This document shows positions 1 to 61,609 of a DNA stretch of 64,000 nt, one piece after another (within the stretch, counting starts at the first letter, position 1; every line of letters starts with the position of its first letter). The position numbers and the translations under genes are program-made. The notes beneath the pieces were generated by a model, which was not told the origin of the DNA, did no database searches, and saw only the letters and a list, made by a program, of their open reading frames with translations. The stretch lies in assembly GCA_951828385.1 (NCBI GenBank), contig OX639973.1:2407200-2471199 (forward strand), in the 5' to 3' direction. Source of the DNA: an uncultured Poribacteria bacterium (lineage in GTDB: Bacteria; Poribacteria; WGA-4E; WGA-3G).

Positions 1-135
1 GCTCGTAGTAGTGCGATTCTGCGGCGTACTTGCCCAAATGCGATCTGCATTATCGCACGTCCTAAAGCGCAATAAATTGCGCCACTACGAACCATCTATC
101 GGTTTAGATGTGACAGATTACTATGCATACTACTT
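1..135. repeat. Diverged partial copy of the palindromic repeat family seen at 9433-9813 (cgtagtag ... ctactacgaacc arms). The ORF-track start at 11 is probably an artefact of reading through it.
   Basis: gctcgtagtag...gcgccactacgaaccatc resembles gttcgtagtag...cgcactactacgaacctac of the 127-bp unit. The ORF-track peptide HYEP is shared with ORF 9751. Confidence 0.35.
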
Positions 136-136
136 T

Positions 137-1351
137 ATGATACTTAAGATCGCGTTTCGTAATATCTTCCGTCAAAAGCGGCGGACAATTCTAACGGCAC
201 TCGCGATGATTGTCGGTTTCGCGCTCTTATCGCTAACCATTGGTTTGTCCGATGGTGCCTACGGGAACATTATCGCGATGTTCACCCGAAACCGTATTGG
301 ACATATTCAGGTGCATCGCGATGGGTATCTCGATAAACCCTCGCTCTACAAAACAATCGACAACGCTCCTGCTGTGGGTGAGACGATTCAGCGTATTGTA
401 GGCGTTGAAGCGTGGACCCCGCGTGTCTACGGGGCAGGACTCGGCTCGGTTGGTGAAAAGAGTACGGCTGTACAAATCATCGGGGTTGATGTGGTCCGTG
501 AAACCGCAGCAACCCGTTTTGACCAAAAAGTCGTTGAAGGCAGCACACTCACAGAAACACCCTCACATGAGGCGGTTATTGGGAAAGGTTTAGCGAAAAT
601 TGTGTCCGCAACGGTTGACAGTGAAATTGTAATCGTTTCACAGGGTGCTGATGGTTCGATTGCGAATGACGTGTATAAAATCGTCGGTATCGCAGAAAGC
701 GGTGACGACATAACCGACCGCGTAGCGTGTTATCTGCACATTGAAGACGCTCAAGAATTGCTTGTGCTTGAAGGACGCGTCCATGAGATTGTTGTGATTG
801 TCTCAAACATCAACCGGGTCGATAAAATCACGAGCGCAATCGAAACGCAACTCAATGATTCAACGCTTGATGTAGCACCGTGGCAGGTGGTTGCCAAATC
901 CTTTTATCGCGCGATGCGTACCGACCAACAAGGAGACGCAATTTCCCGTTTGGTAATTATGCTGATTGTCGCTATCGGTGTCCTTAATACCGTGTTGATG
1001 TCGGTGTTAGAGCGGACGCGTGAGTACGGTGTGCTAAAGGCAGTGGGGACAAAACCGGGGCAAATCTTCTGGCTCGTCGTTTGCGAAGTCGTCATCATAG
1101 CGTTGGGGAGCGTCTGTATCGGCGCGCTCCTTGGCGTTTTGGTCAATTATCTGCTATCCATATACGGCATCACGTACCCCGAAGAAATTACCTACGGCGG
1201 TATGAAACTCAAGACGTTGTACGCTGTGGTCAACATCCGATGTCTAGTTATCCCCGCTATCACGGTTATGCTATCAGCGGCGACTGTCAGTCTGTTTCCT
1301 GCGATAAAAGCCGCCCGTATTATGCCTGCACAGGCGATGCGGACACATTGA
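137..1351 (+). CDS. ABC transporter permease, FtsX/MacB-LolE-like (start moved to MILKIAFRNIF)
   Basis: N-terminus MILKIAFRNIFRQKRRT parallels the second permease (MWLILVKLAWRNIFRNKRRT). There are four C-terminal TM helices and a large periplasmic loop. The gene sits in an operon with an ABC ATPase. Confidence 0.75.
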   Translation: MILKIAFRNIFRQKRRTILTALAMIVGFALLSLTIGLSDGAYGNIIAMFTRNRIGHIQVHRDGYLDKPSLYKTIDNAPAVGETIQRIVGVEAWTPRVYGAGLGSVGEKSTAVQIIGVDVVRETAATRFDQKVVEGSTLTETPSHEAVIGKGLAKIVSATVDSEIVIVSQGADGSIANDVYKIVGIAESGDDITDRVACYLHIEDAQELLVLEGRVHEIVVIVSNINRVDKITSAIETQLNDSTLDVAPWQVVAKSFYRAMRTDQQGDAISRLVIMLIVAIGVLNTVLMSVLERTREYGVLKAVGTKPGQIFWLVVCEVVIIALGSVCIGALLGVLVNYLLSIYGITYPEEITYGGMKLKTLYAVVNIRCLVIPAITVMLSAATVSLFPAIKAARIMPAQAMRTH

Positions 1352-1356
1352 TATGG

Positions 1357-1515
1357 TTGTCAGTTGTCAGTTCGGTTTTTCTGCGAAAAACCTTTCAGTT
1401 GTCAGTTAACATTCTGTGGCAGTAACAAGGTTTGGACCCGCCACAAGACATCCGTTAACCGAACACTGAAGACCGAAAACCATTCCTCTGATAACTGATA
1501 ACCGATAACTGATAA
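1357..1515. repeat. Heptameric GTTRTCA tandem arrays: GTTGTCA x2 at 1357, TCAGTTGTCAGTT at 1395, and CTGATAA x4 (inverse orientation) at 1488
   Basis: Direct 7-bp periodicity is visible in the spacer between the two permease genes. Confidence 0.5.
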
Positions 1516-1526
1516 CTATTCAAACT

Positions 1527-2756
1527 ATGTGGTTGATTTTAGTAAAACTTGCATGGCGAAATATCTTTCGGAATAAACGGCGAACACTCATCGCCGCAAC
1601 AGCGATCGGCATCGGTCTGGCTGCGCTGATTTTTGTTGATGCGTTAATGATCGGGATGACAGACAATATGGTGCGGACTGCTACTGCCTCCTTCCTCGGC
1701 GACGCGCAGATTCATCGGGCAGGGTTTCGAGACGTACAAGAGGTCTCATTGACGATTCAGGCACTTGACGAAGTAACGAACGGGCTCGCTCAGGAAGGGA
1801 TTGTCGAACATTTCACCGAAAGAGTGCTTGCGCCAGGTATGATTACGTCTCCAGCGAACGTCAGTGCAATTGCCCTTGTCGGGGTTCATCCGCCTACAGA
1901 AAAATTTCTGTCCCAAATTGATGATGCGATAACGGAAGGTGTCTATTTTGAAGGCGATAGCAGCCGCGAGATCGTTATCGGTGCGAAACTTGCAGAAATC
2001 TTGGAAATTGGACTTGGGGACCGAGTGGTCGTGACAGTAGCGCAAGCCGAAACCGGAGACCTCTCTCAAGAGATGTTCAGGATTTCCGGTATCTATTATT
2101 TTGCTGGCGAAGAGATGAACGCCGGCATGGCTTTTGTGCGGATTGAAAAAGCGCGAGAGATGCTCGGTATCGGGAACGCAGCACATGAAATCGCCATTAA
2201 ATTTACTTCTCTTGCCTACTCACAAGATCCAGCACTGCCGTTTTGGGAGACGTATTCCGAACACGGCAACGAAGCTTTAAGTTGGACAGAACTGATGTCG
2301 CAATTAACAGCGATATTAGAAATGACGAAGTACAGCAAATATATTATGGCGGTTATCCTATTTTTTCTGGTTGCCTTTGGGATTATCAACACGCTTTTTA
2401 TGTCGTTGTACGAGCGGATGTTTGAGTTTGGTGTGCTACGTGCTGTCGGGACGCGTCCTTTTGGTATGGCGCGCGTCATCTTGTTTGAGGCGGGTGCCTT
2501 AGCAATGGTGAGCATTGGACTCGGCGCGATACTCGGCTTTGTTTTGACAGCAGTTTTTGCGCATGTTGGCATTGACTATACCGGCATCGAAATGACGGGG
2601 GTGACGATACAGGAATTCATCCGCCCCATCATGACGGTTGAACAGTTCATTATTTATCCGGTGTGGCTCTTTATTTTCACGCTCATTGCTGGACTCTATC
2701 CTGCACGCCACGCAGCCAAGATTTCTCCAGCAACCGCAATGCGACGGAGTTTCTAA
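1527..2756 (+). CDS. ABC transporter permease, FtsX-like (MacB/LolC family)
   Basis: Family-typical RNIFRNKRRT N-terminus, an about 220-aa periplasmic domain and a 3-TM C-terminal FtsX domain. Its stop overlaps the ATPase start. Confidence 0.8.
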   Translation: MWLILVKLAWRNIFRNKRRTLIAATAIGIGLAALIFVDALMIGMTDNMVRTATASFLGDAQIHRAGFRDVQEVSLTIQALDEVTNGLAQEGIVEHFTERVLAPGMITSPANVSAIALVGVHPPTEKFLSQIDDAITEGVYFEGDSSREIVIGAKLAEILEIGLGDRVVVTVAQAETGDLSQEMFRISGIYYFAGEEMNAGMAFVRIEKAREMLGIGNAAHEIAIKFTSLAYSQDPALPFWETYSEHGNEALSWTELMSQLTAILEMTKYSKYIMAVILFFLVAFGIINTLFMSLYERMFEFGVLRAVGTRPFGMARVILFEAGALAMVSIGLGAILGFVLTAVFAHVGIDYTGIEMTGVTIQEFIRPIMTVEQFIIYPVWLFIFTLIAGLYPARHAAKISPATAMRRSF

Positions 2757-2757
2757 G

Positions 2758-3459
2758 ATGGAACAGACTGAGAAAACGGATGTCATTATCACAGAAGGTG
2801 TAACAAGGGTTTATGCAGCGGATGGGGTTCCTGTCAACGCGCTGAATGGGATCGATTTAACCATCCAATCGGGAGAATTTACTGCGCTCGTGGGTCCCTC
2901 TGGTTCCGGTAAAACAACTTTTCTCAATATTATTTCTGGCTTGGACGCGCCCACAGACGGAAAAGTGTGGTTGGCTGGCAAAGTGCTTTCAGAGATGAGT
3001 GGCAACGAACTCTCTGACTTTCGACGCGATAATATCGGGTTCATTTTTCAGGCTTATAACCTAATTCCGGTGTTGACAGTCGAGGAAAACGTTGAATACA
3101 TCATGCTCTTAGCAGGTGTCCCTAAGGCGGAACGACACGAACGGGTTATTGCAATGCTCCAAGCTGTCGGGTTAAAAGGGGTCGCTGACCGTACACCGAC
3201 GCAGCTTTCAGGTGGACAGCAGCAGCGTGTCGCTATTGCGCGTGCGATGGTCTCTGAACCGCAGATTATCCTCGCCGATGAACCGACCGCGAACCTCGAC
3301 TCGAAAACGGGTGCTGATCTGCTTGAGATGATGCGCCGCCTCAACACGGGAACCGGCATGACGTTCATCTTCTCAACACACGATCCGATGGTGATGGAGG
3401 GTGCGACGCGTCTGATTACACTTCGCGATGGACGGGTAGATACTGATGAAACGAAGTAA
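2758..3459 (+). CDS. ABC transporter ATP-binding protein (LolD/MacB-type)
   Basis: Walker A GPSGSGKTT, signature LSGGQQQRVAIARA, Walker B ILADEPTANLD and the H-loop STHD. The start is ATG at 2758, 2 nt after the permease stop. Confidence 0.85.
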   Translation: MEQTEKTDVIITEGVTRVYAADGVPVNALNGIDLTIQSGEFTALVGPSGSGKTTFLNIISGLDAPTDGKVWLAGKVLSEMSGNELSDFRRDNIGFIFQAYNLIPVLTVEENVEYIMLLAGVPKAERHERVIAMLQAVGLKGVADRTPTQLSGGQQQRVAIARAMVSEPQIILADEPTANLDSKTGADLLEMMRRLNTGTGMTFIFSTHDPMVMEGATRLITLRDGRVDTDETK

Positions 3460-3460
3460 T

Positions 3461-3517
3461 AGTTGTCAGTTATCAGTTTTAATAGTTTTCAGTTTTCGGT
3501 TATCAGTTGCCAGTTAA
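3461..3517. repeat. Heptameric array of seven units: GTTGTCA GTTATCA GTTTTAA.. GTTTTCA GTTTTCG GTTATCA GTTGCCA
   Basis: The 7-bp period is visible immediately after the ATPase stop. It is followed by the direct repeat tctgatgagaata x2 overlapping the next start codon. Confidence 0.5.
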
Positions 3518-3548
3518 GAGAGATAAAAATTTCTGATGAGAATATCTG

Positions 3549-4769
3549 ATGAGAATAATCCTGGTACTTGTCATCTATTTAATGACAACACCGCTTGTAG
3601 GGACGGCCGATGCTGAGTTTCAAGCCGGTGGTTACTACAAAAACTTTTCTACTGTATTCAACTCACCGCTCCCAGACGCATCTATGGCGGGGATCGTCGT
3701 CAACCGGTTACGCCTGAATCTCTCCCACACACCAACCGACACACTTTCGTTTGCTCTCGCCTATGATTTTACGCCGCGCGTTCAAGACCCTTTACTCTTT
3801 TCCGAATCTCCGTTTGCTGTCGGTGTCGCTTCATCTCGTTACCGGGTTGTAGATTTTGACGCACGGATCTATCCGAGTACGGATGAAGCAACGGGCAGTG
3901 TCGGCGTCTATCACAACCTTGATCGTGCTGCTGTTCAGTTCAGTACCGATTTTGCAGACTTCTCTATCGGTAGGGACGCGATTGCTTGGGGCAGTGCTCG
4001 GATCATAAATCCAACCGATATTATTGCGCCATATACTTACGATCAGTTGGACACGGAAGACCGCGTTGGCGTAGATGCAGTTCGTGTCCGTATTCCGGTC
4101 GGTGTGATGGGTGAGGTGGATACCGGATACATCTTTGGCAACAACTTCGATTTTGATAAAAGTGCTATCTTTCTCCGAACACAATTGAACGCCGCAGAGA
4201 CAGATTTTTCAATTTTACTGTTGGAATTTCAGAGGGATCTGCTTATCGGTTTCGATGTGGCTCGCGGCATTGGCGGCGCAGGGTTCTGGTTAGAAACGGC
4301 TTATGTCTTTGTTGAACCGTTTGATGATGAACCCGACACATCAGATAATTATCTGCGAACCTCTGTCGGTTTGGACTATAGCTTCGGTGGAGAGACGTAC
4401 GCCTTTATTGAATATCATTTCAATAGCGCGGGTGCGACGAAACCGGAAAATTATCTTACTAACTTAGAGCAATCGGCGTATACCCGTGGCGGTGTTTATC
4501 TGCTGGGTCGGCACTATCTCGCCCCCGGATTTACTCGTCAACTGACACCGTTGGTTAGCTTCAGCGGACAGATGCTGTTTAACCTATCCGACCCGTCAAC
4601 TTGGGTTGCACCGCAAGTTGCCTATAACATCGCCGAGGATATTCACCTCTCTGTCGGCGGTTTCGTCAGCATCGGCAAGCGACCTAAAAATGGCGAATCC
4701 TCCGAATTTCAATCGGAATTTGGCAGTTATCCAAATCTTTTCTTTTCCTCGTTTCGCGTCTATTTCTGA
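3549..4769 (+). CDS. Putative outer-membrane beta-barrel protein (secreted)
   Basis: N-terminal signal peptide, alternating amphipathic beta-strand-like segments, and a C-terminal ...FRVYF ending in Phe as in OMPs. It is co-directional with the ABC exporter genes. Confidence 0.4.
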   Translation: MRIILVLVIYLMTTPLVGTADAEFQAGGYYKNFSTVFNSPLPDASMAGIVVNRLRLNLSHTPTDTLSFALAYDFTPRVQDPLLFSESPFAVGVASSRYRVVDFDARIYPSTDEATGSVGVYHNLDRAAVQFSTDFADFSIGRDAIAWGSARIINPTDIIAPYTYDQLDTEDRVGVDAVRVRIPVGVMGEVDTGYIFGNNFDFDKSAIFLRTQLNAAETDFSILLLEFQRDLLIGFDVARGIGGAGFWLETAYVFVEPFDDEPDTSDNYLRTSVGLDYSFGGETYAFIEYHFNSAGATKPENYLTNLEQSAYTRGGVYLLGRHYLAPGFTRQLTPLVSFSGQMLFNLSDPSTWVAPQVAYNIAEDIHLSVGGFVSIGKRPKNGESSEFQSEFGSYPNLFFSSFRVYF

Positions 4770-4895
4770 GTTTTGTATCGCATACGACTGAAGAGAAGGA
4801 GAAAATTCAACGATGTCAAAAAGTCACTCGGAAAATTTAATCGATTTCACAACCCTATGAGGTATGGAAAATTATCTTTCCCGTAAACACACCGT

Positions 4896-4906
4896 GTGAT
4901 ATAATG
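4896..4906 (+). promoter_or_regulatory. Extended -10 element tgtgaTATAAT upstream of the 4943 gene
   Basis: TGnTATAAT consensus about 40 nt upstream of the ATG. The same tgtgatataat(a)gcc string occurs at the 21380 promoter. Confidence 0.35.
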
Positions 4907-4942
4907 CCTACGGTTAGAATTATCCTACGATGGAGATGAGAT

Positions 4943-5779
4943 ATGAACAAAAAACGGATGTTTTTCATAAGTATACTTGGCATTGTGCTTCTGTGTGTCG
5001 GAATCTTCTATTGGCATACGCAACGCCAAGCCAACTACGCAAAAACTCGTGAACTTTTTGCACCTATTTATGAATATTCGGGAAGACTCACACCCGAAGA
5101 ACAAAAACGTTTTTCTGAATTCACCGATTCAATTATGAATGTTGAACCTTCTGTCGCTAAAAAATACATCTTACCCAAGCGAGAGATGCTTCAGTTAGAA
5201 GCACACAGCATGACGTTACAACGGAACAATCCTGAACTAATGTTCATGAACAGTCTACCTTTCCCGACGGATACCGATGTCGAGCCATATAAACGGTACT
5301 TCAGTATCCTTGCACTGATTGCGAAAACCAAGCTTGCGGATTTACCTACGGATAGTAGGAAGTCGATAATCTCACACCTTGATACACTCGGAAAACGACT
5401 GGCGAAAAACAGCGTTGAGGTTTATATTCAAGAAATCAAAGATACCCCTTTTCGTCCGAGGCAAAAACTCCCGACGATGCGCTTCGGCGTTGCGTCTGCA
5501 CCCGGAGAAATCGCAAGAGGGATATTAGAAGCAGATGGACTGGTATTGCCGGAAGATGCTAAACGCGGAGTTATCCAAATCACTGATCTTTATGGAAACA
5601 CGTACGAGGTTGATCTGGATGATCCTGCTGATACAGGTATAACAGAGGATACAACCGAATTGTATGCGAAGATTGACCGGATTTTTGAGCAGCTTACCGA
5701 TGCGGAGTTCCAAAGACTTTCGGATCTCAACAAAGCAGACCGTTCGGCAGAAATCGAAAAGTTGTTCCTATTAGAATAA
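4943..5779 (+). CDS. Hypothetical membrane-anchored protein
   Basis: The ORF has an N-terminal TM helix (FFISILGIVLLCVGIFYW). I do not recognise any family. Confidence 0.4.
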   Translation: MNKKRMFFISILGIVLLCVGIFYWHTQRQANYAKTRELFAPIYEYSGRLTPEEQKRFSEFTDSIMNVEPSVAKKYILPKREMLQLEAHSMTLQRNNPELMFMNSLPFPTDTDVEPYKRYFSILALIAKTKLADLPTDSRKSIISHLDTLGKRLAKNSVEVYIQEIKDTPFRPRQKLPTMRFGVASAPGEIARGILEADGLVLPEDAKRGVIQITDLYGNTYEVDLDDPADTGITEDTTELYAKIDRIFEQLTDAEFQRLSDLNKADRSAEIEKLFLLE

Positions 5780-7855: not shown

Positions 7856-7941
7856 GGCTTACATCTATAAAAGTAAAGTTCCTTATGATATGGGGACGCT
7901 TTGCCATATCCCTTGGCACGCTTCAAAGCTCTGAAAGTAGA

Positions 7942-9453
7942 ATGTTTATGGTCTCTACAAGAAAAATATCTTTATTTTTATTTTTTAGTTTCCTTTGTTT
8001 TGTGATCGTATCCATCGCCTCTACCGAGTTATTTTCGCAACGCGGTATGAGTGTTACTATCCGCACAGAGAACGGGGAGGAGTTTGCTCTCTATAAGGAT
8101 TCTTATGCGCTTATTATTGGAAATGGCGCATATCCAGTGAAAAACGGTTGGAATCCGCTTCCGGGTGCAGTAGAAGATGTCAAAGAAGTCGCAGAAGTCC
8201 TTGAACACCATGGGTTCAATGTGACGCTGAAAATAGATGTAACGAAGACTGAGTTTAATCAAGTATTTTCGGAGTTTATCTATGAATTTGGTAAAAATAA
8301 GGATAATAGACTTCTGTTTTATTATGCAGGGCATGGTTACACGACAAAAGCAGCAACAGGTGAGGACCTTGGCTACCTTGTGATGCTTGATACGCCGAGT
8401 CCTGAGAATGCTGCAGCATTTGACCTCTATAGTGTCGATATGGTCAAGTTCGTATCGGATTCTAAGAAGATTCACGCCAAGCATGTTCTTTTTATGTTTG
8501 ATAGCTGCTTCTCAGGCACAGTGCTAAACCTGAGAAATCGAGTTACTCCCTCCCATATTACGGATCGGATTAAGAATCCTGTGCGCCAGTTCATCACAGC
8601 CGGTCGTGCGGATGAACCCGTGCCAGATAGGAGCGAATTTAAGAAAGCATTTTTGAATATCCTTGAAGGGCGCGTTGAAGAACCGACACCAGATGGTTAC
8701 CTGACAGGTGTTGAGTTGGGAGATTACCTCTATCGAACAGTCCCAAAGTTCTCTCAAGGACAACACCCGCAACATGGAAAGATTCACGATCAGCAATTGA
8801 ACACTGGTGATTTTGTGTTTGTGCTTTCTCAGAACAATAGTGAGGATAATGGCGTTGAGTTAGATACGATAGCGATGTTAAACATAACCAGTAACCCGAG
8901 TGGCGCAATGGTTTATGCTGATGGCATCCTAATCGGGATAACACCGTTAGATAGTTACGAGATTGACACAGGTCCTCGTCTTGAGAAACAGGTAAATATA
9001 GGTTTAGAACTTTCAGGCTACAAGAGCCGTGTTAAAAAAATAACGTTAAAAGGTGGTCAACAGTTCCCGTGGAACGTGCCTTTAGAGAAAATGACGAGCA
9101 AGCCTGCTGAATCCATAACTGATGTTCAGAGGGATGAAGAAACTGCAACGTATCTCTCGCTGGTGTCTGATAATCCACATATTCTTGTACCGATAAACGA
9201 TATGAGGGAATGGAGTGGGTGGAATGGTTGGTTCTGGGAAAAAGTGAAAGGTGAACAACCTACTGAACGGCCTTCTATTTTTTCAGGCAATTATGCGGAT
9301 AGATTTGACCATTGGATGTACTCACATGCCGAAAGCCATATCGTCTATGATATAAGCGGTGGTGAATACTCTCAATTTGATGGGAATTTAATTACACCCA
9401 GCTCATGTATAGAAACCATTGAACTCATATTTCTAGTAGTGCTTCAATGTTGA
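7942..9453 (+). CDS. Caspase-domain (peptidase C14) protein. This is the 5' part of a caspase–NPCBM-like–FGE-sulfatase gene truncated by a stop inside the 127-bp tandem repeat.
   Basis: Signal peptide, then caspase His/Cys dyad motifs YYAGHGY and FMFDSCFSG. It is 90% identical to paralogs at 11043 and 14675 over the caspase region. The C-terminal HIVYDISGGEYSQFDGNLI matches the N-half of an NPCBM-like module. The stop TGA at 9451 lies in repeat copy 1. Confidence 0.6.
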   Translation: MFMVSTRKISLFLFFSFLCFVIVSIASTELFSQRGMSVTIRTENGEEFALYKDSYALIIGNGAYPVKNGWNPLPGAVEDVKEVAEVLEHHGFNVTLKIDVTKTEFNQVFSEFIYEFGKNKDNRLLFYYAGHGYTTKAATGEDLGYLVMLDTPSPENAAAFDLYSVDMVKFVSDSKKIHAKHVLFMFDSCFSGTVLNLRNRVTPSHITDRIKNPVRQFITAGRADEPVPDRSEFKKAFLNILEGRVEEPTPDGYLTGVELGDYLYRTVPKFSQGQHPQHGKIHDQQLNTGDFVFVLSQNNSEDNGVELDTIAMLNITSNPSGAMVYADGILIGITPLDSYEIDTGPRLEKQVNIGLELSGYKSRVKKITLKGGQQFPWNVPLEKMTSKPAESITDVQRDEETATYLSLVSDNPHILVPINDMREWSGWNGWFWEKVKGEQPTERPSIFSGNYADRFDHWMYSHAESHIVYDISGGEYSQFDGNLITPSSCIETIELIFLVVLQC

Positions 9454-9813
9454 GTTTATAGGTAATCCTGTTCGTAGTAGGGCAATTCATTGCCCGTTGC
9501 TGACGTGCGATAAATCGCACTACTACGAACCTACCCTCAGATTCAAAGTTGAAAGACTACTAGTAGTGCTTCAATGTTGAGTTTATAGGTAATCCTGTTC
9601 GTAGTAGGGCAATTCATTGCCCGTTGCTGACGTGCGATAAATCGCACTACTACGAACCTACCCTCAGATTCAAAGTTGAAAGACTACTAGTAGTGCTTCA
9701 ATGTTGAGTTTATAGGTAATCCTGTTCGTAGTAGGGCAATTCATTGCCCGTTGCTGACGTGCGATAAATCGCACTACTACGAACCTACCCTCAGATTCAA
9801 AGTTGAAAGACTA
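9433..9813. repeat. Tandem repeat of 3 x 127 bp with nested palindromes (gttcgtagtag/ctactacgaac arms; gggcaattcattgccc; tgcgataaatcgca)
   Basis: Units start at 9433, 9560 and 9687 and are identical by eye. The total of 381 bp equals 127 codons. The repeat lies between the two halves of the split gene. Confidence 0.9.
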
Positions 9814-10899
9814 CTAGTGGATAACAAAGTTGTCTATAACTCAGGTCGGGTTAGGGTTTTTGAACCTATGCGTGTTGCATTCAACATACCTGCTGACGCC
9901 AAAACTCTGACGATCCGCGTAACAGATGGCGGCGATGGGGGCAGATGCGATCACTGGATACTTGGAGACGCACGTCTACTGGAAACTCGGCAACCTATCT
10001 CCGCTAAACCAAAACCGGATGTCCCACAGACAACCATTGAAAATGACATCACCATAAACCAGGAAGCGCGATCGCCCTCGCCAAATATGCCACAAACGGT
10101 TGTTGGAAAGGATGGGGCGGAAATGGTGTTAATTCCGGCAGGCGACTTCCAGATGGGGAGCGGGGCCGGTCGCCTTTACAATGCCGCGACAATTCCTGTC
10201 CATACTGTCTATATTGATGCATTTTACATTGACAAATACGAGGTGACCGTTGGGCGATACAACCAATTTGTCCGTGCCACTGGACATCGTCCGTTGCCGG
10301 ATTGGATGTCTAAATATTCTCCAACAGACCAGCATCCGGTTGTCGGTGTAACTTGGGACGACACAATAGCATACGCGAAATGGGCAGGCAAACGACTTCC
10401 AACAGAAGCGGAATGGGAAAAAGCGGCAAGGGGTGGTTTGATAGGAAGAGACCACCCGTGGGGTAATGCTCCGCTGGACGGTACACAGTGCAATTTTGCC
10501 GACAAAAGTCTGTGGGAAGTTTGGAACGAAGAACGGAATGATGAAGATAATGATGCGGATAAAAGTATTAATGATGGTTACGCGTACACCGCCCCGATTG
10601 GCAGTTACCCACCGAACGGATATGGTTTATACGATATGGCAGGGAATGTGGCAGAATGGTGCTTTGATGCGTATGATGAAAATTTTTACGCCAATTCTCC
10701 TCGGCGGAACCCAGTTGCAGATATACTTATACGAGATGGTGAAAATAACATAGTCGCTATTAACAAATTGCGCGTTGTGCGAGGCGGTTCCTGGTACCAT
10801 TGGCCGGTGGCAGTGTGGATTGCCTGTCGTACCCCGAATTCGCCTACGCTGCGTCACAGAAACGGCGGTTTTCGCTGTGTGAAGTCGGTAACGCCCTGA
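9751..10899 (+). CDS. 3' fragment of the split gene: NPCBM-like C-half plus an FGE-sulfatase (formylglycine-generating-enzyme-like) domain. It may be translated from an internal ATG.
   Basis: Same reading frame as 7885..9453. VVYNSGRVRVFEP...VTDGGDGGRCDHWILGDARLLE matches the C-half of the NPCBM-like domain of ORF 16736. The FGE motif is YAKWAGKRLPTEAEWEKAARGG...YGLYDMAGNVAEWC...RGGSW. Confidence 0.5.
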   Translation: MLTCDKSHYYEPTLRFKVERLLVDNKVVYNSGRVRVFEPMRVAFNIPADAKTLTIRVTDGGDGGRCDHWILGDARLLETRQPISAKPKPDVPQTTIENDITINQEARSPSPNMPQTVVGKDGAEMVLIPAGDFQMGSGAGRLYNAATIPVHTVYIDAFYIDKYEVTVGRYNQFVRATGHRPLPDWMSKYSPTDQHPVVGVTWDDTIAYAKWAGKRLPTEAEWEKAARGGLIGRDHPWGNAPLDGTQCNFADKSLWEVWNEERNDEDNDADKSINDGYAYTAPIGSYPPNGYGLYDMAGNVAEWCFDAYDENFYANSPRRNPVADILIRDGENNIVAINKLRVVRGGSWYHWPVAVWIACRTPNSPTLRHRNGGFRCVKSVTP

Positions 10900-13341: not shown

Positions 13342-14676
13342 ATTTCTCAAAAGTTATTGTAAAGCAATGATTATCAGGGTTCTTTTGGTATTATTGTATG
13401 AAAATGCGTTATGAAGTCCGTAAGCGTCTGTCTTTCTCCAGTGAGTTGAAGTTGTATTTGATGAAAAGTGCGTCGTTCTGAGATGCTCATTTGTAGCAAC
13501 ATCAGATAACTCATCACTTTTATACCGAGGCTCACATACGCCCCTTGTCTGCTTTCGAGGCTCATGGCAGAGACGTGGAGGTTCGATTTGAAGTGCCGCC
13601 AAAACTGTTCAATACCGTGGTGTTGAGACCAAATCCTGAGAGCCTCAGAGGTGCGTAGGGGTTTTCCAAAGACTAAAAGGGTTCGTATCTTGCCTCTATC
13701 TCGGAAAAATAGGACGACACATTCCCCGAAAGTTGGACTTTCTGCTTTGAGGCGACAGGCGGGTTTATCACAGCCCCATTGATCCGCAGCCAGCGCCACG
13801 CGTCTTTTATGAACCGAAAGTTTCGCCTTTGTATCAGCGATAGTCATGACGTAGTTATTTTTTCCGTGAATCAATATAGAGGTAAACCCCAACTCCGATA
13901 AAGCCTCAACAAGTTTACGGCTCCCATACCATGAATCGAAGGTGATTGGATATTTTCTGATGTCTATGCCGTGGGTATCAAAGAACGCTAAGACTTCTTG
14001 GATCATGGTGATAACGAGAGTAGGTTTATCTGTGTTGCCGCGTCCTTGTTTACTGACGAGACGCATATCTAAGGGGATCACGCGATCTCCGCATTTCAGT
14101 GTGATGCCTAAGAGGTTCTGACACCAGATAGGCGTATTGTGTTTTTTCGAGTAGTAGTTTGAACAGTAAGATAACGTCTCGCCTTCACGCGGGAGATTGC
14201 TATCATCAATACTGACGGTGATACACCGCCGCGATTGTGTTGAAGCACTCTTACTTTCAGTGTCTTTGATGAAATCAACTGCCATCGCACATCCGAGCCG
14301 GAGATTCAAACATTTCGAGTGATAAAGGCTCAGGTTTCCAAGACTGCGATAAAGACGTGCTTTGGGAAGTTTCAAAGCATCGGCGACTTGATTCGGATTG
14401 TAAAGTCCAAAAAGATGGCAAACACAGAGCAGAAGTAGCGTCTCAACGATTTGCTGCCGCATCCGCTGAAAGTAAGAAGAAAGAAGGTCTTGAAAAAAGA
14501 TTGTAGATTTGATAAGGTGATCCTGCATGAGATGGCCTCCTAAAGGTTGTAGTTATCTCTTAGGATGCCATCTCATGCGCTAAAAATCAAGAAACTTTTT
14601 CAAAACCATCGCATTTTCACTTGGCTACACCTGCGATCTCTTGATTATTATTACCTCCTTGATAGATTTGAGAAAT
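13342..14676 (-). mobile_element. IS element of about 1.3 kb (IS701/IS4-like) inserted into codons 7-8 of the third caspase–FGE paralog
   Basis: The ends atttctcaaa... and ...tttgagaaat are imperfect inverted repeats. Upstream, 13176-13341 duplicates the promoter region and ATGAAAAAAATACC start of paralog 2. The flanks read through in frame (…ctg at|g cca gct…). Confidence 0.6.
13374..14528 (-). CDS. DDE transposase (IS701/IS4 superfamily-like)
   Basis: VSIDDSNLPREGE (DDT-like first Asp), FDSWYGS (second Asp), a downstream ...SLESRQG...K signature, and a length of 384 aa. Confidence 0.55.
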   Translation of the reverse strand: MQDHLIKSTIFFQDLLSSYFQRMRQQIVETLLLLCVCHLFGLYNPNQVADALKLPKARLYRSLGNLSLYHSKCLNLRLGCAMAVDFIKDTESKSASTQSRRCITVSIDDSNLPREGETLSYCSNYYSKKHNTPIWCQNLLGITLKCGDRVIPLDMRLVSKQGRGNTDKPTLVITMIQEVLAFFDTHGIDIRKYPITFDSWYGSRKLVEALSELGFTSILIHGKNNYVMTIADTKAKLSVHKRRVALAADQWGCDKPACRLKAESPTFGECVVLFFRDRGKIRTLLVFGKPLRTSEALRIWSQHHGIEQFWRHFKSNLHVSAMSLESRQGAYVSLGIKVMSYLMLLQMSISERRTFHQIQLQLTGERQTLTDFITHFHTIIPKEP

Positions 14677-16711
14677 GCCAGCTTTATTTCTATTTTTTTG
14701 TATTCTTTGCGGTGTAACCATGCTTATTGCTGCAACCGATTTGTTTTCGCAACGCGGTATGAGTGTTACCGTCCAGACCGAGAGTGGAGAAGAGTTCGGT
14801 CTCTATAAAGACTCCCATGCGCTGATTATTGGAAATGGTGCATATCCCGTGGAGAACGGTTGGAATCCGCTTCCGGGTGCAGTGAAAGATGTTAAAGAAG
14901 TTGCAGAGATCCTTGAACGCCACGGATTCAAAGTAACCCTGAAAATAGATGTGACAAAGACTGAGTTCAATGAGGCATTTTCAGAATTTATCTACGATTT
15001 TGGTAAAGATCCGGACAACCGACTTCTATTTTACTACGCGGGTCACGGTTACACGACGAAGGCGGCAACAGGTGAGGATCTCGGCTACCTCGTCATGCTT
15101 GATACGCCAAGTCCTGAGAACGCCGCCAAGTTTGATCTGTATAGTGTGGATATGGTCAAGTTTGTATCCGACTCCAAGAAGATCCACGCCAAGCATGTGC
15201 TATTTATGTTTGATAGCTGCTTTTCTGGAACGGTGCTCAATCTTAGGAATCGGGTTACACCATCCCACATTACAGATCGAATCAAAAATCCGGTGCGTCA
15301 GTTCATCACAGCAGGTCGTGCCGATGAACCTGTGCCGGATAGGAGTGAGTTCAAGAAGGCGTTTTTGAACATCCTTGAAGGGCGCGTTGAAGAACCGACA
15401 CCAGATGGTTATTTGACAGGTGTCGAGTTAGGGGATTACCTCTACCGAACGGTGCCGAAGTTCTCACGAGGACAACACCCGCAACATGGAAAAATCCACG
15501 ACCAGCAGCTAAACACCGGTGATTTTGTGTTCGTACTTTCTCAAAACGATCAGAATGGTAGCGAGGATAACGGTATTGAGTTGAACACGATAGCGACGTT
15601 GGACATAACCAGCACACCGGCGGGCGCGAAAGTCTACGTTGACGGCAACTGGATTGGTACGACTCCGTTGCGCAGTTATCAATTTGATACGGGTATTCGT
15701 CTTGAAAAACAGGTGAATGTCGGCTTAGAGCTTTCGGGTTACAAAAGTCGTGTTAAGAGAATAACGCTAAAAGGCGGTCAACAGGTCCCGTGGGATGTGC
15801 ATTTAGAAAAGATAGAAAGAAAGCCGATACAACCGAAGCCGAGCGTGCCAGAAACACCTCCTGAGAAAGGTCCGAGTATCAGTGAAGAAAAACTGTTGAT
15901 TTCCCGGAATACGCTACAGACAATAGTTGGAAATGACGGTGCTGAGATGGTACTGATTCCAGCCGGCGAATTTGAGATGGGGCACAATGGTACGGCAATA
16001 ACAAAACCTGTGCACACTGTCTACGTTGATGCATTTTACATCGATAAATACGAGGTCACTGTTAGGCAATACAATCAATTCGTTCGTGCCACTGGACATC
16101 CTCCCTTACCGGATTCAGTATCTAAGTATTCTCCAACAGATCAACACCCCGTTGTCCTTGTGACTTGGGATGATGCGATGGCATACGCGAAGTGGACAGG
16201 AAAAAGACTTCCGACAGAGGCGGAATGGGAGAAAGCGGCGCGCGGTGGTTTAGCAGGAAAACGGCATGCCTGGGGCGATGCTGCGCTGGATGGAACACAG
16301 TGTAACTTTGCAGATAAGAGTTTGAACGAAGTGTGGGAGAAAGAAAGAAAACCAGAAGATAATTGGGCGGATAAAAGTATTGATGATGGTTACACACACG
16401 CTGCTCCTGTCGGTAGTTATCCACCGAATGGATATGGTTTATACGATATGGGGGGGAATGTGGCAGAATGGTGCTTTGATGCGTATGATGAAAATTTTTA
16501 TGCCAATTCTCCGCGTCGCAACCCAATAGCAGATATACTTATAAGAGATGGTGAAAATAATATAGTCGCTATTAATAAATTGCGCGTTTTGCGAGGTGGT
16601 TCTTGGTACTATTCGCAAGGGACAGTGTGGATCGCCAGTCGCCTTGGGATTGATCCCAAAAACGCGGCGAGCAGCCAAGGTTTTCGTTGTGCGAAATCGG
16701 TAGATCCTTAA
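14675..16711 (+). CDS. Caspase (C14) – FGE-sulfatase fusion protein. The N-terminus was rebuilt by the IS insertion, with the ATG lying at the IS junction.
   Basis: MPALFLFFCILCGVTMLIAA retains a hydrophobic leader. Caspase and FGE motifs are as in the paralogs. Confidence 0.7.
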   Translation: MPALFLFFCILCGVTMLIAATDLFSQRGMSVTVQTESGEEFGLYKDSHALIIGNGAYPVENGWNPLPGAVKDVKEVAEILERHGFKVTLKIDVTKTEFNEAFSEFIYDFGKDPDNRLLFYYAGHGYTTKAATGEDLGYLVMLDTPSPENAAKFDLYSVDMVKFVSDSKKIHAKHVLFMFDSCFSGTVLNLRNRVTPSHITDRIKNPVRQFITAGRADEPVPDRSEFKKAFLNILEGRVEEPTPDGYLTGVELGDYLYRTVPKFSRGQHPQHGKIHDQQLNTGDFVFVLSQNDQNGSEDNGIELNTIATLDITSTPAGAKVYVDGNWIGTTPLRSYQFDTGIRLEKQVNVGLELSGYKSRVKRITLKGGQQVPWDVHLEKIERKPIQPKPSVPETPPEKGPSISEEKLLISRNTLQTIVGNDGAEMVLIPAGEFEMGHNGTAITKPVHTVYVDAFYIDKYEVTVRQYNQFVRATGHPPLPDSVSKYSPTDQHPVVLVTWDDAMAYAKWTGKRLPTEAEWEKAARGGLAGKRHAWGDAALDGTQCNFADKSLNEVWEKERKPEDNWADKSIDDGYTHAAPVGSYPPNGYGLYDMGGNVAEWCFDAYDENFYANSPRRNPIADILIRDGENNIVAINKLRVLRGGSWYYSQGTVWIASRLGIDPKNAASSQGFRCAKSVDP

Positions 16712-30747: not shown

Positions 30748-31335
30748 ATGGACAGAAAAGCAGCAATTGCCCGTGAAACAGCGGAGACCCGCATCCGGCT
30801 CAGCCTTGACCTCGACGGAACAGGGGCATCCACTATTAACACCGGTGTCGGTTTCTTGGATCACATGTTAGAACTCTTTGCCAAACACGGGTTCTTTGAC
30901 CTTGAGATTGAGGCGAAGGGCGATTTACATGTAGATGCGCATCATACGACGGAGGATGTCGGTATCTGCCTTGGGCAAGCCCTCCAAAAAGCAGTACTCG
31001 ACAAAGCAGGAATGCAACGGTTCGGCAGTTTCACTGTTCCGATGTATGAATCGCTCGCCAAAGTCGATTTAGATGTCTGCGGACGGCCTTACCTCCACTT
31101 TGAGACACCGCTGAGTTACGGGAAAGTCGGTGATTTTGATATTGAACTTGCCGAAGAATTTTTTCACGGATTTGTGAACCATAGTGGTACAACCTTGCAC
31201 ATCAATGTCCCCTACGGCACGAATCAACACCATATCATTGAAGCCATCTTTAAGGCAGTTGCGAAAGCGTTGCATATTTCCACACGTCTTGATGAAAATA
31301 TCACCGGTGTTCTGTCCACTAAAGGGAGTTTGTAG
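30748..31335 (+). CDS. hisB: Imidazoleglycerol-phosphate dehydratase
   Basis: GVGFLDHMLELFAKHG...HVDAHHTTEDVGI...HHIIEAIFKA motifs. Length 195 aa. Confidence 0.85.
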   Translation: MDRKAAIARETAETRIRLSLDLDGTGASTINTGVGFLDHMLELFAKHGFFDLEIEAKGDLHVDAHHTTEDVGICLGQALQKAVLDKAGMQRFGSFTVPMYESLAKVDLDVCGRPYLHFETPLSYGKVGDFDIELAEEFFHGFVNHSGTTLHINVPYGTNQHHIIEAIFKAVAKALHISTRLDENITGVLSTKGSL

Positions 31336-31343
31336 AGCGGAAT

Positions 31344-31376
31344 AGTTTTCAGTTTTCAGTTAACCGATAGTTAAAT
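31344..31376. repeat. Heptad array GTTTTCA GTTTTCA GTTAACC.. between hisB and glgC
   Basis: Same GTTNYCA periodic family as at 1357, 3461 and 49940. Confidence 0.45.
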
Positions 31377-31389
31377 TCGGAGAGTTTTT

Positions 31390-32682
31390 ATGAGTAATGG
31401 GAACGTTATTGCAGTTATTCTTGGAGGCGGCCGTGGCGCACGCTTATTTCCATTGACACGGGATCGCGCGAAACCGAGTGTCCCGATTGCTGGTAAATTT
31501 CGACTGGTGGACATACCGATTAGCAATTGCCTACATTCAGGATTAGAGAAAATCTATGTCTTAACCCAGTTCAACTCCGTCTCCTTGAATCGACATATTG
31601 CCCAGACGTACCGCTTTGATACGTACCGCCGCGGGTTCGTCCAAATCCTCGCAGCGCAACAGACGCTGATGGGCGAAGAGTGGTATCAAGGAACAGCGGA
31701 TGCCATCAAACACAATGAACCGTATATCCTGAATCCACGGTTCAAAGACGACTATGTCCTGATTCTTGCGGGTGACCACCTCTATCGGATGGATTACCGA
31801 AAAATGCTGCAGGTCCACACCGAATCCAACGCGGCTATCACTGTGTCTGTTATTCCTGTTAAGAAAGAAGACACCAGTGGACTCGGTATTCTCCAAGCAG
31901 ATGCGAACGGACGTATCGTCGATTTCGTTGAAAAACCGCAAACGGAGGAAGAACTCCAGCGGCTCCGCGTTGAATCTGAGGTTTTCACCTCGCGGGGCAT
32001 TGAACCGCACGGAAGGGAATACATCGCCTCAATGGGGATCTATATCTTCAATCGAGAAGTCTTGCAAGAGGTGCTGCAAGATGATTCAAACGTAGACTTC
32101 GGTAAAGATATTATTCCGAAGAGCATTCAGTCGCGTACGGTTTCAGCCTACTTTTTTGACGGCTATTGGGAGGATATTGGTACGATCCGCTCTTTCTATT
32201 CGGCAAATATCGCCCTCACTGATACCGCGCCGGCGTTCAATTTCTACGATGAGCAGGCCCCGATCTATACCAACCGGCGGCACCTGCCAAGCACCAAAGT
32301 CAATAGCAGTAGTGTTCGTTCTTCAATTCTCGCTGAAGGTTCTATCATTGATGACTCCGAACTTGATAGAACGATTGTTGGTATCCGAAGTATTATCTCC
32401 GGTGGCAGTCGCGTTTACCAGTCTGTACTCATGGGGGCAGACTACTATGAATCGGATGCATCGCGAGTGGAGAGCGAACAGTCAGGCCTCCCCAAAGTCG
32501 GTATCGGTCGAAATTGCTTGATTCAGAATGCAATCATTGACAAAAATGCGCGTATCGGTGATAATTCAGTACTGGTGAACCGAGATGGCATTGATAATTA
32601 CGATGGCGAAAACTACTGCATTCGGGACGGCATTGTTATTGTGCCAAAGGATGCGACAATACTTCCCGAAACCGTCGTTTAA
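31390..32682 (+). CDS. glgC: Glucose-1-phosphate adenylyltransferase
   Basis: AVILGGGRGARLFPLT..KPSVPIAGKFRLVDIPISNC, plus a left-handed beta-helix C-terminus. Confidence 0.85.
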   Translation: MSNGNVIAVILGGGRGARLFPLTRDRAKPSVPIAGKFRLVDIPISNCLHSGLEKIYVLTQFNSVSLNRHIAQTYRFDTYRRGFVQILAAQQTLMGEEWYQGTADAIKHNEPYILNPRFKDDYVLILAGDHLYRMDYRKMLQVHTESNAAITVSVIPVKKEDTSGLGILQADANGRIVDFVEKPQTEEELQRLRVESEVFTSRGIEPHGREYIASMGIYIFNREVLQEVLQDDSNVDFGKDIIPKSIQSRTVSAYFFDGYWEDIGTIRSFYSANIALTDTAPAFNFYDEQAPIYTNRRHLPSTKVNSSSVRSSILAEGSIIDDSELDRTIVGIRSIISGGSRVYQSVLMGADYYESDASRVESEQSGLPKVGIGRNCLIQNAIIDKNARIGDNSVLVNRDGIDNYDGENYCIRDGIVIVPKDATILPETVV

Positions 32683-35769: not shown

Positions 35770-35805
35770 ACCACAACGGGCAATGAATTGCCCGACTACG
35801 AACAG
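35770..35805. repeat. Solo fragment of the palindromic repeat family (gggcaatgaattgccc + gactacgaac)
   Basis: Matches the core hairpin and right arm of the 127-bp unit at 9433-9813. Confidence 0.45.
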
Positions 35806-35930
35806 GACCACTCTTAATTTCAATATGGACGAAGCACTATGTATATTTAGACGCAAAAGTTGTTTATGCGTTTATTTTTTTCGTAACCAGAGTCGCTCAA
35901 CCAAGTCTCCGCCTGTCATTGTAAAAAGCG

Positions 35931-48481: not shown

Positions 48482-49906
48482 GTGATGAACCCGGAAGTGA
48501 TTATAAACAAAATATGCAACGCTATTGATCTGATGATCGAAAGCAGTAAGCGATACAAAGGGCTGTTCCCCTCTATTCTACATCCGAAAACGGGTGAGAT
48601 GCTAACGGAGAAACCGCCTAAGATTCCGGGGCAACGGAATGGTGATCGCGCGCATCTCGGTACGAACTTGATTCACGATGAACCGTTGCTCGCCACGATG
48701 AACGCGCTTGCTGAAACTGAATCGAAACCGGAATACATAGCAGCAGTGGATCGCTACTTGGCGCACTTTGCCCAGCATTGTACGCATACGGCATCTGGAT
48801 TGTTCCCTTGGGGCGAACACTCGTTTTGGCAGCTGATTGAGGAACGGGTCGGGTGTTCGCGGAATCCGGCGGGTGGTGCCGCAATTCACGATCATCTGCG
48901 TCAGGTTCCGCTGTGGCTCTGGCAGAAACTGAGGACGTTTAATCCGGCATGCGTGCAGAGTTTCGCTGATGGCTTGGATTATCACTGGACAGAGGGCGAC
49001 GGACTTGAATATATCCGTCATGCAAATATCGACACAAAAGCACATCTCGTTCGCGGTGCTCGGGCGTGTGATTTTCCACGGCATTCAGGCTTTTATATCT
49101 TGGATTTGGCGTTCGCGTATACGCAAGACCAGCGTCCTGAAATCCATCAACAGATCCAGAATTATACCGATTACTGGTGGGAAAAACGGGATGACCGTGG
49201 GCTTTTACGTATCGAAAGTCGTTCACCCAAAGAGGCGGAACGGTTTTTTGAGACGAATGCACCGACACAAACGTTCTCATTGGGGATTAGCCTGCTTGAA
49301 TCTGCAGCATTGATAACATCGCTTCTCCCCGAATTGGCAGACCAGATGCGGCGATACGGTTTGGTCTACATTGACGGATTTCTCGCGGCACCTCATAACC
49401 TCGACACGCGTGAATTTATCAGTTTATGCGAGTGTGAGACGGATCGGATTGTTGAACGTATGTCGGCATGGGGCAGTGTCTACGGTGCCGGGACTTCGTG
49501 CGGTACCGGGGTGTTATGCCTCGGCGGATGGCGGTTGACACAGAATAAGAGGTTGATGGCGTTGGCACGCGCGATTGGTGAGACCTATCTTGATGAGAAG
49601 TTTCCAGTTGACCGTGTTCAGACGGAAGGGTTTAAGATTCCGGCATCGGACACCGGTCTTACGCTTGAGTTGTTTGCAGATCTCTACGACATCACCGGTG
49701 AAGCAGTGTGGTTGGAAGGCGGCATTGAACTTGCAGAGACAGTGTTGGAAGTCTATTTCCCGGAAACACTGCCCTACGGTGCATCGGGGATAGATTGGTA
49801 TGAATCACAGATGGGAGCGGCTTATTTGATTCACGGTTTGGCACGAGTAGCACTATTATCACGGCATCGAACCTGTCCGCTCGCGCCCAATTATACAGCG
49901 CGATAG
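48482..49906 (+). CDS. Hypothetical protein (no family recognised)
   Basis: 474-aa ORF with a good coding pattern. Confidence 0.4.
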   Translation: MMNPEVIINKICNAIDLMIESSKRYKGLFPSILHPKTGEMLTEKPPKIPGQRNGDRAHLGTNLIHDEPLLATMNALAETESKPEYIAAVDRYLAHFAQHCTHTASGLFPWGEHSFWQLIEERVGCSRNPAGGAAIHDHLRQVPLWLWQKLRTFNPACVQSFADGLDYHWTEGDGLEYIRHANIDTKAHLVRGARACDFPRHSGFYILDLAFAYTQDQRPEIHQQIQNYTDYWWEKRDDRGLLRIESRSPKEAERFFETNAPTQTFSLGISLLESAALITSLLPELADQMRRYGLVYIDGFLAAPHNLDTREFISLCECETDRIVERMSAWGSVYGAGTSCGTGVLCLGGWRLTQNKRLMALARAIGETYLDEKFPVDRVQTEGFKIPASDTGLTLELFADLYDITGEAVWLEGGIELAETVLEVYFPETLPYGASGIDWYESQMGAAYLIHGLARVALLSRHRTCPLAPNYTAR

Positions 49907-49923
49907 GCGCACTGAAATGGCAA

Positions 49924-49965
49924 GGAGCACCCTCCTTTTTTATCAGTTAATAAATTTTATCAGCA
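49924..49965 (+). terminator. Weak terminator-like hairpin plus T-run, followed by TTATCAG heptad repeats
   Basis: aggag cacc ctcct ttttttt, then ttatcagtt...ttatcagc. Confidence 0.3.
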
Positions 49966-61303: not shown

Positions 61304-61609
61304 TCTGAGACAGATAAGTAGATTGTTCAGGCGTTTCCGTACACCGTAGGGGTAATATTGCCTCACAGTAAGAATAGAAACAGCGTATTTAAGCAACTGC
61401 ACCCGGTATGAAGTTTAAGAAAATATTCGGGTAATTCTATAAAGAACAGTTCTCAATCAAGACGGTTCTATTATCCAGCAAATCCTTGAACCCTGTAAAT
61501 CCTGATTCAGACAATGGATACCTACATTACCCGATTAAATTCTTAATCTTCATTAGGGGTGCTATTGCTTCGCAGTGAGAATGCATAGGTAGCAACTTAT
61601 GTTACTTCT

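Follow-up and report, generated by a model that had tools for sequence, protein, structure and literature searches.

Tandem heptamer repeats of the TAACTGA family at gene junctions of Candidatus Poribacteria

Short tandem arrays of a seven-nucleotide unit, GTTNTCA (TGANAAC on the opposite strand), lie between genes in a 64,000-nucleotide stretch of DNA, hereafter the window, from an uncultured Poribacteria bacterium (contig OX639973.1). The first locus fills the whole 175-nucleotide (nt) spacer (1352-1526) between two genes for MacB/FtsX-type ABC permeases (11-1351 and 1527-2756). The second array follows the neighbouring ABC ATPase gene, whose orthologues encode proteins of 233-234 amino acids. 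The third lies between hisB (30748-31335) and glgC (31390-32682). Homologues of GlgC and of the second permease share 95-98% identity with the window proteins and are assigned to Candidatus Poribacteria (NCBI naming). The arrays belong to the known TAACTGA family of heptamer repeats, for which these bacteria are a new host.

Heptamer arrays in three intergenic spacers

The original prediction listed four arrays of strict seven-nucleotide periodicity in the window. Tandem Repeats Finder (TRF) and pattern scans bear out three of these loci, and TRF reports a period of 7 for every genuine array. Three consecutive GTTNTCA units with at most three mismatches are matched nine times, against 0.05 expected from dinucleotide-preserving shuffles. 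A scan at 15 of the 18 specified bases gives six merged arrays against 0.03 expected under a second-order Markov model. In the second and third loci the period-7 tracts span 3462-3519 and 31345-31365. The fourth locus, 49940-49965, was rejected as an array. It holds two copies of TTATCAG that are 17 nt apart and out of phase, misses even a threshold of 14/18 and is matched by no pattern scan. What lies there is the T-tail of a terminator-like hairpin, about 15 nt past the stop codon of the open reading frame (ORF) 48482-49906, and the AT-rich DNA beyond.

As the prediction held, the arrays are intergenic and non-coding. They begin 2-8 nt past the plus-strand stop codons that end at 1351, 3459 and 31335, ahead of the next plus-strand gene. 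The GTTNTCA strand is free of stop codons in any frame and the TGANAAC strand has stops in all three. Single arrays are unstructured, with a predicted RNA folding energy of 0 kcal/mol. Rfam covariance models have no match in the window at gathering score, and the sole sub-threshold match within 1300-3600 is a spurious miRNA (E = 0.21).

The first locus had been described as one strictly periodic tract with heptads in both orientations. Both orientations are indeed present, and the locus is a composite rather than a single array. It consists of an array, a 19-nt mini-hairpin, a second array, a unique centre, degenerate inverted heptads and an inverted array (Table 1). The central segments of the spacer have no further copies in the window. 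The heptads of 1356-1411 on the plus strand and of 1460-1516 on the minus strand carry the same unit, lie near ORF ends and face each other as a convergent pair of the kind known from GGGAATC repeats. In the predicted RNA fold of the spacer (-53 kcal/mol, z = -5.4) a 16-bp helix between outer arrays, with 1356-1372 as its 5' side, closes all of 1352-1526 as a stem-loop, and the inner left array (1391-1411) pairs with 1452-1475. The earlier statement that the arrays are not hairpins thus holds for single arrays and fails here, because two inverted arrays form this helix.

The right array (1489-1516) stops 10 nt short of the ATG at 1527, and no Shine-Dalgarno (SD) motif stands between them. This start lacks any SD-like tetramer; an SD motif precedes 19 of the 34 window genes. 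The position of the start is borne out by ATGTGGTTG, which is conserved among the orthologues.

The second array was reported as seven units at 3461-3517. The array is real, but it comes to about 7.7 units at a unit match of only 68% and has a 23-nt tandem duplication inside it (3457-3501, two copies of TAATAGTTGTCAGTTATCAGTTT). The duplication takes in the stop codon of the ATPase gene and is absent from four orthologues. Beside this array is a further duplication, of 13 nt (CTGATGAGAATAT, 2.3 copies, 3528-3557), which duplicates the start-codon region of ORF 3549-4769. The third array is followed by a normal SD motif, GGAGAG, ahead of glgC.

Table 1. Positions of the arrays and of the features associated with them in the window.
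Feature	Position	Strand	Evidence
TGA stop codon of the first MacB/FtsX-type ABC permease gene (11-1351)	1349-1351	+	ORF list; Pfam MacB_PCD and FtsX
Outer left array, GTTGTCA x2.4 (GTTGTCA GTTGTCA GTT), 4 nt past the stop	1356-1372	+	TRF, 100% match; pattern scans
Mini-hairpin GGTTTTTC-TGC-GAAAAACC, then TTT; one-unit inverted heptad pair inside the array	1374-1392	+	Terminator-like match
Inner left array, cctTTCA GTTGTCA GTTAACA	1391-1411	+	Pattern scans
Unique central stem-loop TGTGGCAG...CCGCCACA	1415-1445	+	One copy in the window; forms the innermost helix of the fold
Degenerate inverted heptads, minus strand GGTTTTC GGTCTTC AGTGTTC	1460-1480	-	14/18 match
Right array, plus strand TGATAAC TGATAAC CGATAAC TGATAAC (TAACTGA 'forward')	1489-1516	-	TRF, 4.3 copies, 91% match
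Second MacB/FtsX-type permease gene, start abutted by the TAACTGA array	1527-2756	+	Pfam; homologues are ABC transporter permeases (Candidatus Poribacteria bacterium)
ABC ATPase gene, stop TAA then TAG, second array directly after	2758-3459	+	Pfam ABC_tran; start from sequence
Second array, about 7.7 units of GTTNTCA in mixed variants, beginning at the stop (TAA TAG TTGTCA...)	3457-3519	+	TRF, periods 7 and 23
Third array, hisB-glgC spacer, GGAAT AGTTTTC AGTTTTC AGTTAAC CGATAGTTAA	31339-31376	+	TRF; pattern scans
Terminator-like hairpin AAGGAGcaccCTCCTTTTTT, AAGGAG-cacc-CTCCTTTTTT (AAGGAG-cacc-CTCCTT, then TTTTTT)	~49921-49940	+	Sequence; fold

Variation among relatives and polarity across phyla

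Orthologous loci were compared on complete or long Poribacteria contigs (labelled L001, L126 and so on). They were reached through homologues; the exact permease protein is without a record. At 97% protein identity (L126) the inter-permease spacer equals that of the window minus exactly one right-arm unit. At 95% (L127) it lacks one left unit, carries an additional one behind the mini-hairpin and differs by point changes (alignment A1). At 88-89% (L128 and L129) and at 83% (L130) it opens with other heptads, CAGCAAT and GGCTNTC, and in L130 it closes with inverted CCGATAG units. The junction after the ATPase gene has an array of 2.6-7.7 units in all five orthologous loci, with a 23-nt gap in those other than the window (alignment A2). 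In the relative at 83% identity (L130/L131) this array is GTTCTCA in four copies. A diverged array stands in the hisB-glgC spacer of L001, and an inverted-arm version in the 184-nt spacer of L005. The array is absent from L003 and L004 because only 2 nt separate the two genes there (TAG-TA-ATG).

Permease relatives whose identity does not exceed 65%, from JGI metagenomes, have no arrays in approximately 460 kb. The arrays are clade-specific. They have been gained, lost and turned over inside one clade, and their length changes in steps of 7 nt, as the strain-to-strain comparison suggested by the original prediction confirms. The exact 7-nt steps, together with one junction that has no array, fit replication slippage. 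A structured spacer is also supported in L127 (z = -4.4) and in an element of L087 (z = -4.2), and weakly in L130 (z = -2.2).

All 15 arrays found in 233 kb of Poribacteria DNA, at eight independent sites, lie in spacers, which make up 13.6% of the bases; four of the 15 were first called inside the downstream ORF by a crude caller and were reassigned from the orthologue alignment. The stored gene calls L128 12043-13329 and L129 12106-13371 likewise run the downstream ORF through a GTTNTCA array, giving apparent gene overlaps and N-terminal extensions of approximately 15-25 residues. In this orientation the array is free of stops in every frame. The extension of ORFs through post-stop GTTNTCA arrays is likely a systematic annotation artefact.

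The same clade of Poribacteria also has arrays of other heptamers, among them TCAGCAA, GGCTNTC/CCGATAG (inverted in L130) and TTTTGAA-like units, at L128 9852-9869 and 19487-19527, L129 9859-9872, L130 3845-3875 and 3950-3975, and L127 11225-11245. Some occupy a junction that has GTTGTCA in the window. The glgC neighbourhood of close relatives is otherwise syntenic and has genes for TnpB (OrfB_IS605/Cas12f-like) and IS1595 transposases at differing places (L003 19360-19704, L004 19036-20154, L005 4509-5705, L001 5159-6043); no link between them and the arrays has been established.

Short modules recur inside the Poribacteria arrays. The mini-hairpin, (C)GGTTTT(T)CTGCGA(A)AAACC followed by TTTCAGTT, is found again in arrays at unrelated loci (L087 586, 3773 and 3826; L129 16372). 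A 21-nt module, GTTTGCCTCGCAGTGAGAGTT, is identical in arrays at unrelated loci of two genomes (L128 12067-12087 and L129 16397-16417), and a left edge, GGAATAGTT, is common to several arrays. The recurrence of modules at unrelated loci implies that short modules get copied from array to array. The simplest account is ectopic recombination involving the repetitive arms, though mobility is conceivable.

A wider survey covered approximately 240 other genomic and viral loci, each chosen for at least three perfect units. Gene contexts outside Poribacteria came from a simple longest-ORF caller and are crude. The genome scan, for exact (GTTNTCA)x3 in one genome per GTDB species, gave at least 120 matches. 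Among the matches listed are Cyanobacteria, Acidobacteriota, Planctomycetota, Bacteroidota, Latescibacterota, Calditrichia, Anaerolineae, Candidatus Thiomargarita, Parabeggiatoa and two further Poribacteria. The favoured fourth base, again among the matches listed, changes with the group: Cyanobacteria prefer A, Acidobacteriota C, Planctomycetota T or G, and Poribacteria A or G. Phage-like contigs also carry GTTNTCA arrays, among the matches listed from a scan of IMG/VR. One viral contig (IMGVR_UViG_3300033075_001258; 41.6 kb, 63-65% GC; loci L211, L225, L227 and L238) has at least six AT-rich GTTTTCA arrays, with a convergent pair at L227 111-138 / 391-418; simple ORF calling is too noisy there.

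Arrays within 15 nt of a coding boundary follow a polarity rule: at the genome loci GTTNTCA reads into the spacer at 39 of 47 gene ends and at 36 of 36 gene starts. Beyond 15 nt from a coding boundary the arrays of these loci have no orientation bias. The same polarity is repeated in the viral set, on independent contigs (73 against 13 at gene ends, 26 against 3 at starts). Pairs of arrays no more than 300 nt apart are convergent (GTTNTCA...loop...TGANAAC) in 19 cases and divergent in one at the genome loci, and convergent in 32 cases against two in the viral set. For approximately one third of the boundary arrays, a partner array lies within their spacer. A typical pair has about four units per arm and a unique loop of 20-30 nt, and fills the spacer from stop codon to ATG.

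Of the 41 starts that abut an array, 35 are ATG and four are preceded by an SD-like tetramer; among other starts the tetramer is present in 29%. Since ORFs read along the TGANAAC strand have to begin past the array, the start-side rule is to some extent biased. We argue that it is nevertheless real, given the excess of ATG and the homology-confirmed start at 1527.

Several lines of argument were tried and dropped. A model of polar growth, in which the array grows toward the boundary and leaves a degenerate tail behind, gains no support from the in-phase decay tails, which are nearly symmetric. An argument from G-U wobble pairing was dropped after no consistent advantage of the sense-strand fold was found. 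The stop-codon content of the two strands fails as a general cause of the polarity, since GGGAATC repeats have the same polarity and are stop-free on either strand (PMC4692102).

Relationship to known heptamer repeats

In many bacteria the long simple-sequence repeats that are most over-represented have a unit of seven nucleotides, and none of these heptanucleotide repeats is known to have an established function. The STRR heptanucleotides of heterocystous cyanobacteria, with the units CCCCAGT, TTGGTCA and CAACAGT, were reportedly described by Mazel et al. in 1990 (reference 39 of PMC4692102). They resemble the Poribacteria arrays as tandem heptanucleotides dispersed in non-coding DNA and differ in their units. 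The small dispersed repeats (SDR) of Nostoc are said to have been reported by Elhai et al. in 2008. They too consist of tiny hairpin-like modules that nest in other repeats across many loci, and the 19-nt GGTTTTTCTGCGAAAAACC and the 21-nt module of Poribacteria behave likewise within arrays. The SDR differ in having other sequences in another phylum, and what is seen of the Poribacteria modules is their recurrence.

The closest counterpart is the TAACTGA direct repeat of marine Beggiatoaceae, Thiocystis, 15 Cyanobacteria and five Bacteroidetes (MacGregor 2015, PMC4679880). Its sets have 2-6 units, often 'split' by related heptamers, and are almost exclusively intergenic. Most are 'forward' and lie a few nucleotides from start codons that lack an SD motif; some are reverse and directly past stop codons. 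Sets differ by 7-nt indels between Cyanothece strains. A single array has no predicted structure, with stops in all three forward frames and none in reverse. No function was assigned to the sets, and regulation of translation by way of S1, Csp or CsrA-like binders was put forward as a suggestion (PMC4679880).

The original prediction raised the possibility of a novel class of intergenic repeat, and the comparison speaks against it. The unit TGATAAC of the right array, in more than the two copies by which the published sets are defined, is a rotation of TAACTGA and has the same positions, orientations and 7-nt indels (PMC4679880; alignments A1 and A2). The other window arrays, GTTGTCA, GTTATCA and GTTTTCA, are one-base variants of its reverse complement, and all window arrays are intergenic. 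Of the window loci only the first has a forward array next to an SD-less start; the second and third are of the reverse, after-stop class. There are also differences. Candidatus Poribacteria are outside the published host list; this is a matter of distribution and not of structure, so they are a new host for the family and not a non-member. The fourth base is free within the window arrays (G, A or T), and two of the three arrays are stop-proximal. The window also has a convergent pair with nested mini-hairpins, where a single inverted repeat was reported before (PMC4679880).

The GGGAATC / GGGGA(C/T)T repeats of Xanthomonas and Nostoc differ in sequence and agree in arrangement. They are intergenic and mostly form convergent opposite-strand pairs, 70-75 among approximately 185 arrays in Xanthomonas, with four units as the modal size (Rehm et al. 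2015, PMC4692102). The repeats are on the coding strand near the end of the upstream ORF and on the non-coding strand ahead of starts. Their length and sequence vary among close relatives, and no regulatory role was found (PMC4692102). Their unit is unrelated, G-rich, G-quadruplex-forming and stop-free on both strands; that of Poribacteria is AU-rich and unstructured. The published convergent pairs, four-unit mode and ORF polarity also count against a novel class. The rules seen in the window and the survey match those of GGGAATC, and are therefore not new in kind; polarity and convergence had not been stated for the TAACTGA family. A Nostoc preprint describes other heptamer repeats beside start codons with modest reporter effects. 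Heptamer repeats are usually attributed to replication slippage (Mrazek 2007, as cited by others).

REP, BIME and REPIN sequences (PMC3116915) are also extragenic, strain-variable convergent hairpin pairs that are often found in operons near stop codons. REPs are near-identical imperfect palindromes of 20-40 nt linked to RAYT, and here the arms are tandem 7-mers with unique loops. The near-identical copies typical of REP or REPIN elements are absent: loops and centres are unique and only the 19-nt mini-hairpin recurs. No RAYT gene was identified among the flanking genes, which were the only ones scanned.

Other repeats in the window are of different kinds. At 9433-9813, between ORFs 7885-9453 and 9751-10899, a 127-bp unit stands in three tandem copies that are perfect (100%). 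Its fold, at -46.5 kcal/mol, holds twin inner hairpins, GGGCAATTCATTGCCC and GTGCGATAAATCGCAC, with GTAGTAG/CTACTAC on either side. The unit has partial relatives at 35774-35807 of the window, L126 18698-18796 and L127 14270-14332, and resembles a distinct family of dispersed palindromic repeats (REP/MITE-like). An inverted repeat at 61391-61435 / 61526-61570 has 45-nt arms of 80% complementarity and a 90-nt gap. A 19-nt hairpin of 95% complementarity (14525-14543 / 14560-14578) stands beside the start of the minus-strand ORF 13374-14528 and before the plus-strand ORF 14675-16711.

Competing explanations and a possible translational role

The reading that we favour, with modest confidence, is a joint one. 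It holds that the arrays are TAACTGA-family repeats in Candidatus Poribacteria which change by slippage and may have a role in translation. Family identity and slippage dynamics are well supported, and the translational role is hypothesised. Replication slippage would generate and resize the arrays, and recombination would copy short modules between them. Just ahead of an SD-less AUG, the AU-rich and unstructured (UGAUAAC)n tract may act as a leader, which would terminate incoming ribosomes in every frame and support SD-independent initiation. Where the leader tract is paired with a stop-proximal arm, initiation downstream could depend on translation of the upstream cistron. Judged from sequence, a role of the array at 1527 in SD-independent or coupled translation is plausible.

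Several points weigh against this joint reading. The translational part of it is our own extrapolation. Two of the three window arrays, 3457-3519 and 31339-31376, are stop-proximal and do not fit an initiation leader, and glgC has an SD motif of its own. Structure of the spacer is unsupported in L128 (z = +1.0) and L005 (z = -1.1). Among 20 convergent pairs between co-directional genes the RNA folds better in sense in 12 and in antisense in eight, without consistent asymmetry, and the convergent element of the window folds slightly better as antisense. Because of this split a role at the RNA level is not favoured over one at the DNA level. The stop codons of the TGANAAC strand, which the leader would use, are also not the general cause of polarity, because GGGAATC repeats are stop-free yet have the same polarity.

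The arrays may instead be neutral or selfish simple-sequence repeats, produced by slippage and drift and kept where they are harmless, with hairpins and SD-less starts as by-products. We hold this possible but on the unlikely side. The 7-nt indels, the complete loss of one array and the turnover of the unit at a fixed site (GTTGTCA/GTTATCA to GTTCTCA to CAGCAAT-type) are what it predicts. The neighbouring genes (ABC transporter; hisB-glgC) are functionally unrelated, the fold is not kept in all orthologues, and the literature gives GGGAATC repeats no regulatory effect (PMC4692102). The polarity at ORF boundaries and the convergent bias of about 20:1, each in two datasets, nevertheless call for a directional force. 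The post-ATPase array is kept in every relative down to 83% protein identity, and partners for one third of the boundary arrays are well beyond a plausible base rate. The convergent pairs could also be REPIN- or MITE-like mobile hairpins, with heptad arrays as arms and spread by a transposase (e.g. of Y1/RAYT or TA-targeting IS630 type), which we consider very improbable. The fixed orientation of the outer ends (19:1 and 32:2) is as terminal inverted repeats would give it, several Poribacteria elements are bounded by TA...TA and share their left edge, identical small modules lie at unrelated loci, and TnpB/IS605 genes occur in neighbouring orthologous DNA. The flanking TA would equally be given by a degenerate next unit (TCA|GTT, AAC|TGA), and single arrays follow the same polarity rule. 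The loops between arms are unique at every examined locus, so there are no whole-element copies. No clear target-site duplication was seen and no transposase is linked to the arrays. The MITE reading is disfavoured, as internal sequence is not conserved and target-site duplication is unconvincing.

Stems of approximately 16-28 bp that fill co-directional spacers could also be intercistronic elements of mRNA processing, stability or termination, such as an RNase III site, a 3' stabiliser or an attenuator stem; REP elements and the intercistronic hairpins of phage T7 are the comparison. This is very improbable in our view. Many elements are A-rich on the left flank and T-rich on the right, and the mini-hairpin at 1374-1392 is terminator-like, fitting an intrinsic terminator loosely (8 bp with three GC pairs). 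The stems themselves are AU-rich with periodic mismatches and loops of 20-190 nt, unlike intrinsic terminators. Single arrays are structureless, folding energy has no strand asymmetry, and terminator-like matches in 1-5000 are not above chance (4 against 5.3 expected); the arrays were accordingly rejected as intrinsic terminators. The original prediction, like MacGregor, proposed that a dedicated protein binds the iterated units in DNA or RNA; a multimer would read TCAGTT / AACTGA at 7-nt spacing. This is improbable too. HutP reads UAG triplets at this spacing. Only the fourth position of the unit varies and the other six are conserved (GTT-N-TCA), the same core is found across several phyla and viral contigs, and the arrays contact translation start and stop sites. 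No candidate protein has been identified, and the fourth base, or even the whole unit, differs by lineage (A in Cyanobacteria, C in Acidobacteriota, other units in L128-L130). A different heptamer has the same architecture in Xanthomonas (PMC4692102), which makes a sequence-specific reader an unlikely shared cause.

TAACTGA-type and GGGAATC-type arrays share one architecture, with approximately four units per arm, convergent pairs and a fixed polarity flush with ORF boundaries. That a common mechanism underlies this likeness between heptamer arrays of unrelated sequence is a doubtful but possible explanation. It could be an enzyme or mobile system that builds arrays at gene junctions. Alternatively it could be a selected intercistronic device that brings an upstream stop codon and an SD-less start together and couples their translation.

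The Poribacteria arrays are a well-documented instance of a known repeat class in a new host and with a somewhat richer architecture. With them the TAACTGA family reaches a phylum that is uncultivated and partly sponge-associated. The survey suggests that several further phyla, and viral contigs too, share the core unit and the rules of polarity and convergence. If the arrays replace the SD motif or couple translation across spacers, they would have a bearing on the annotation of gene starts.

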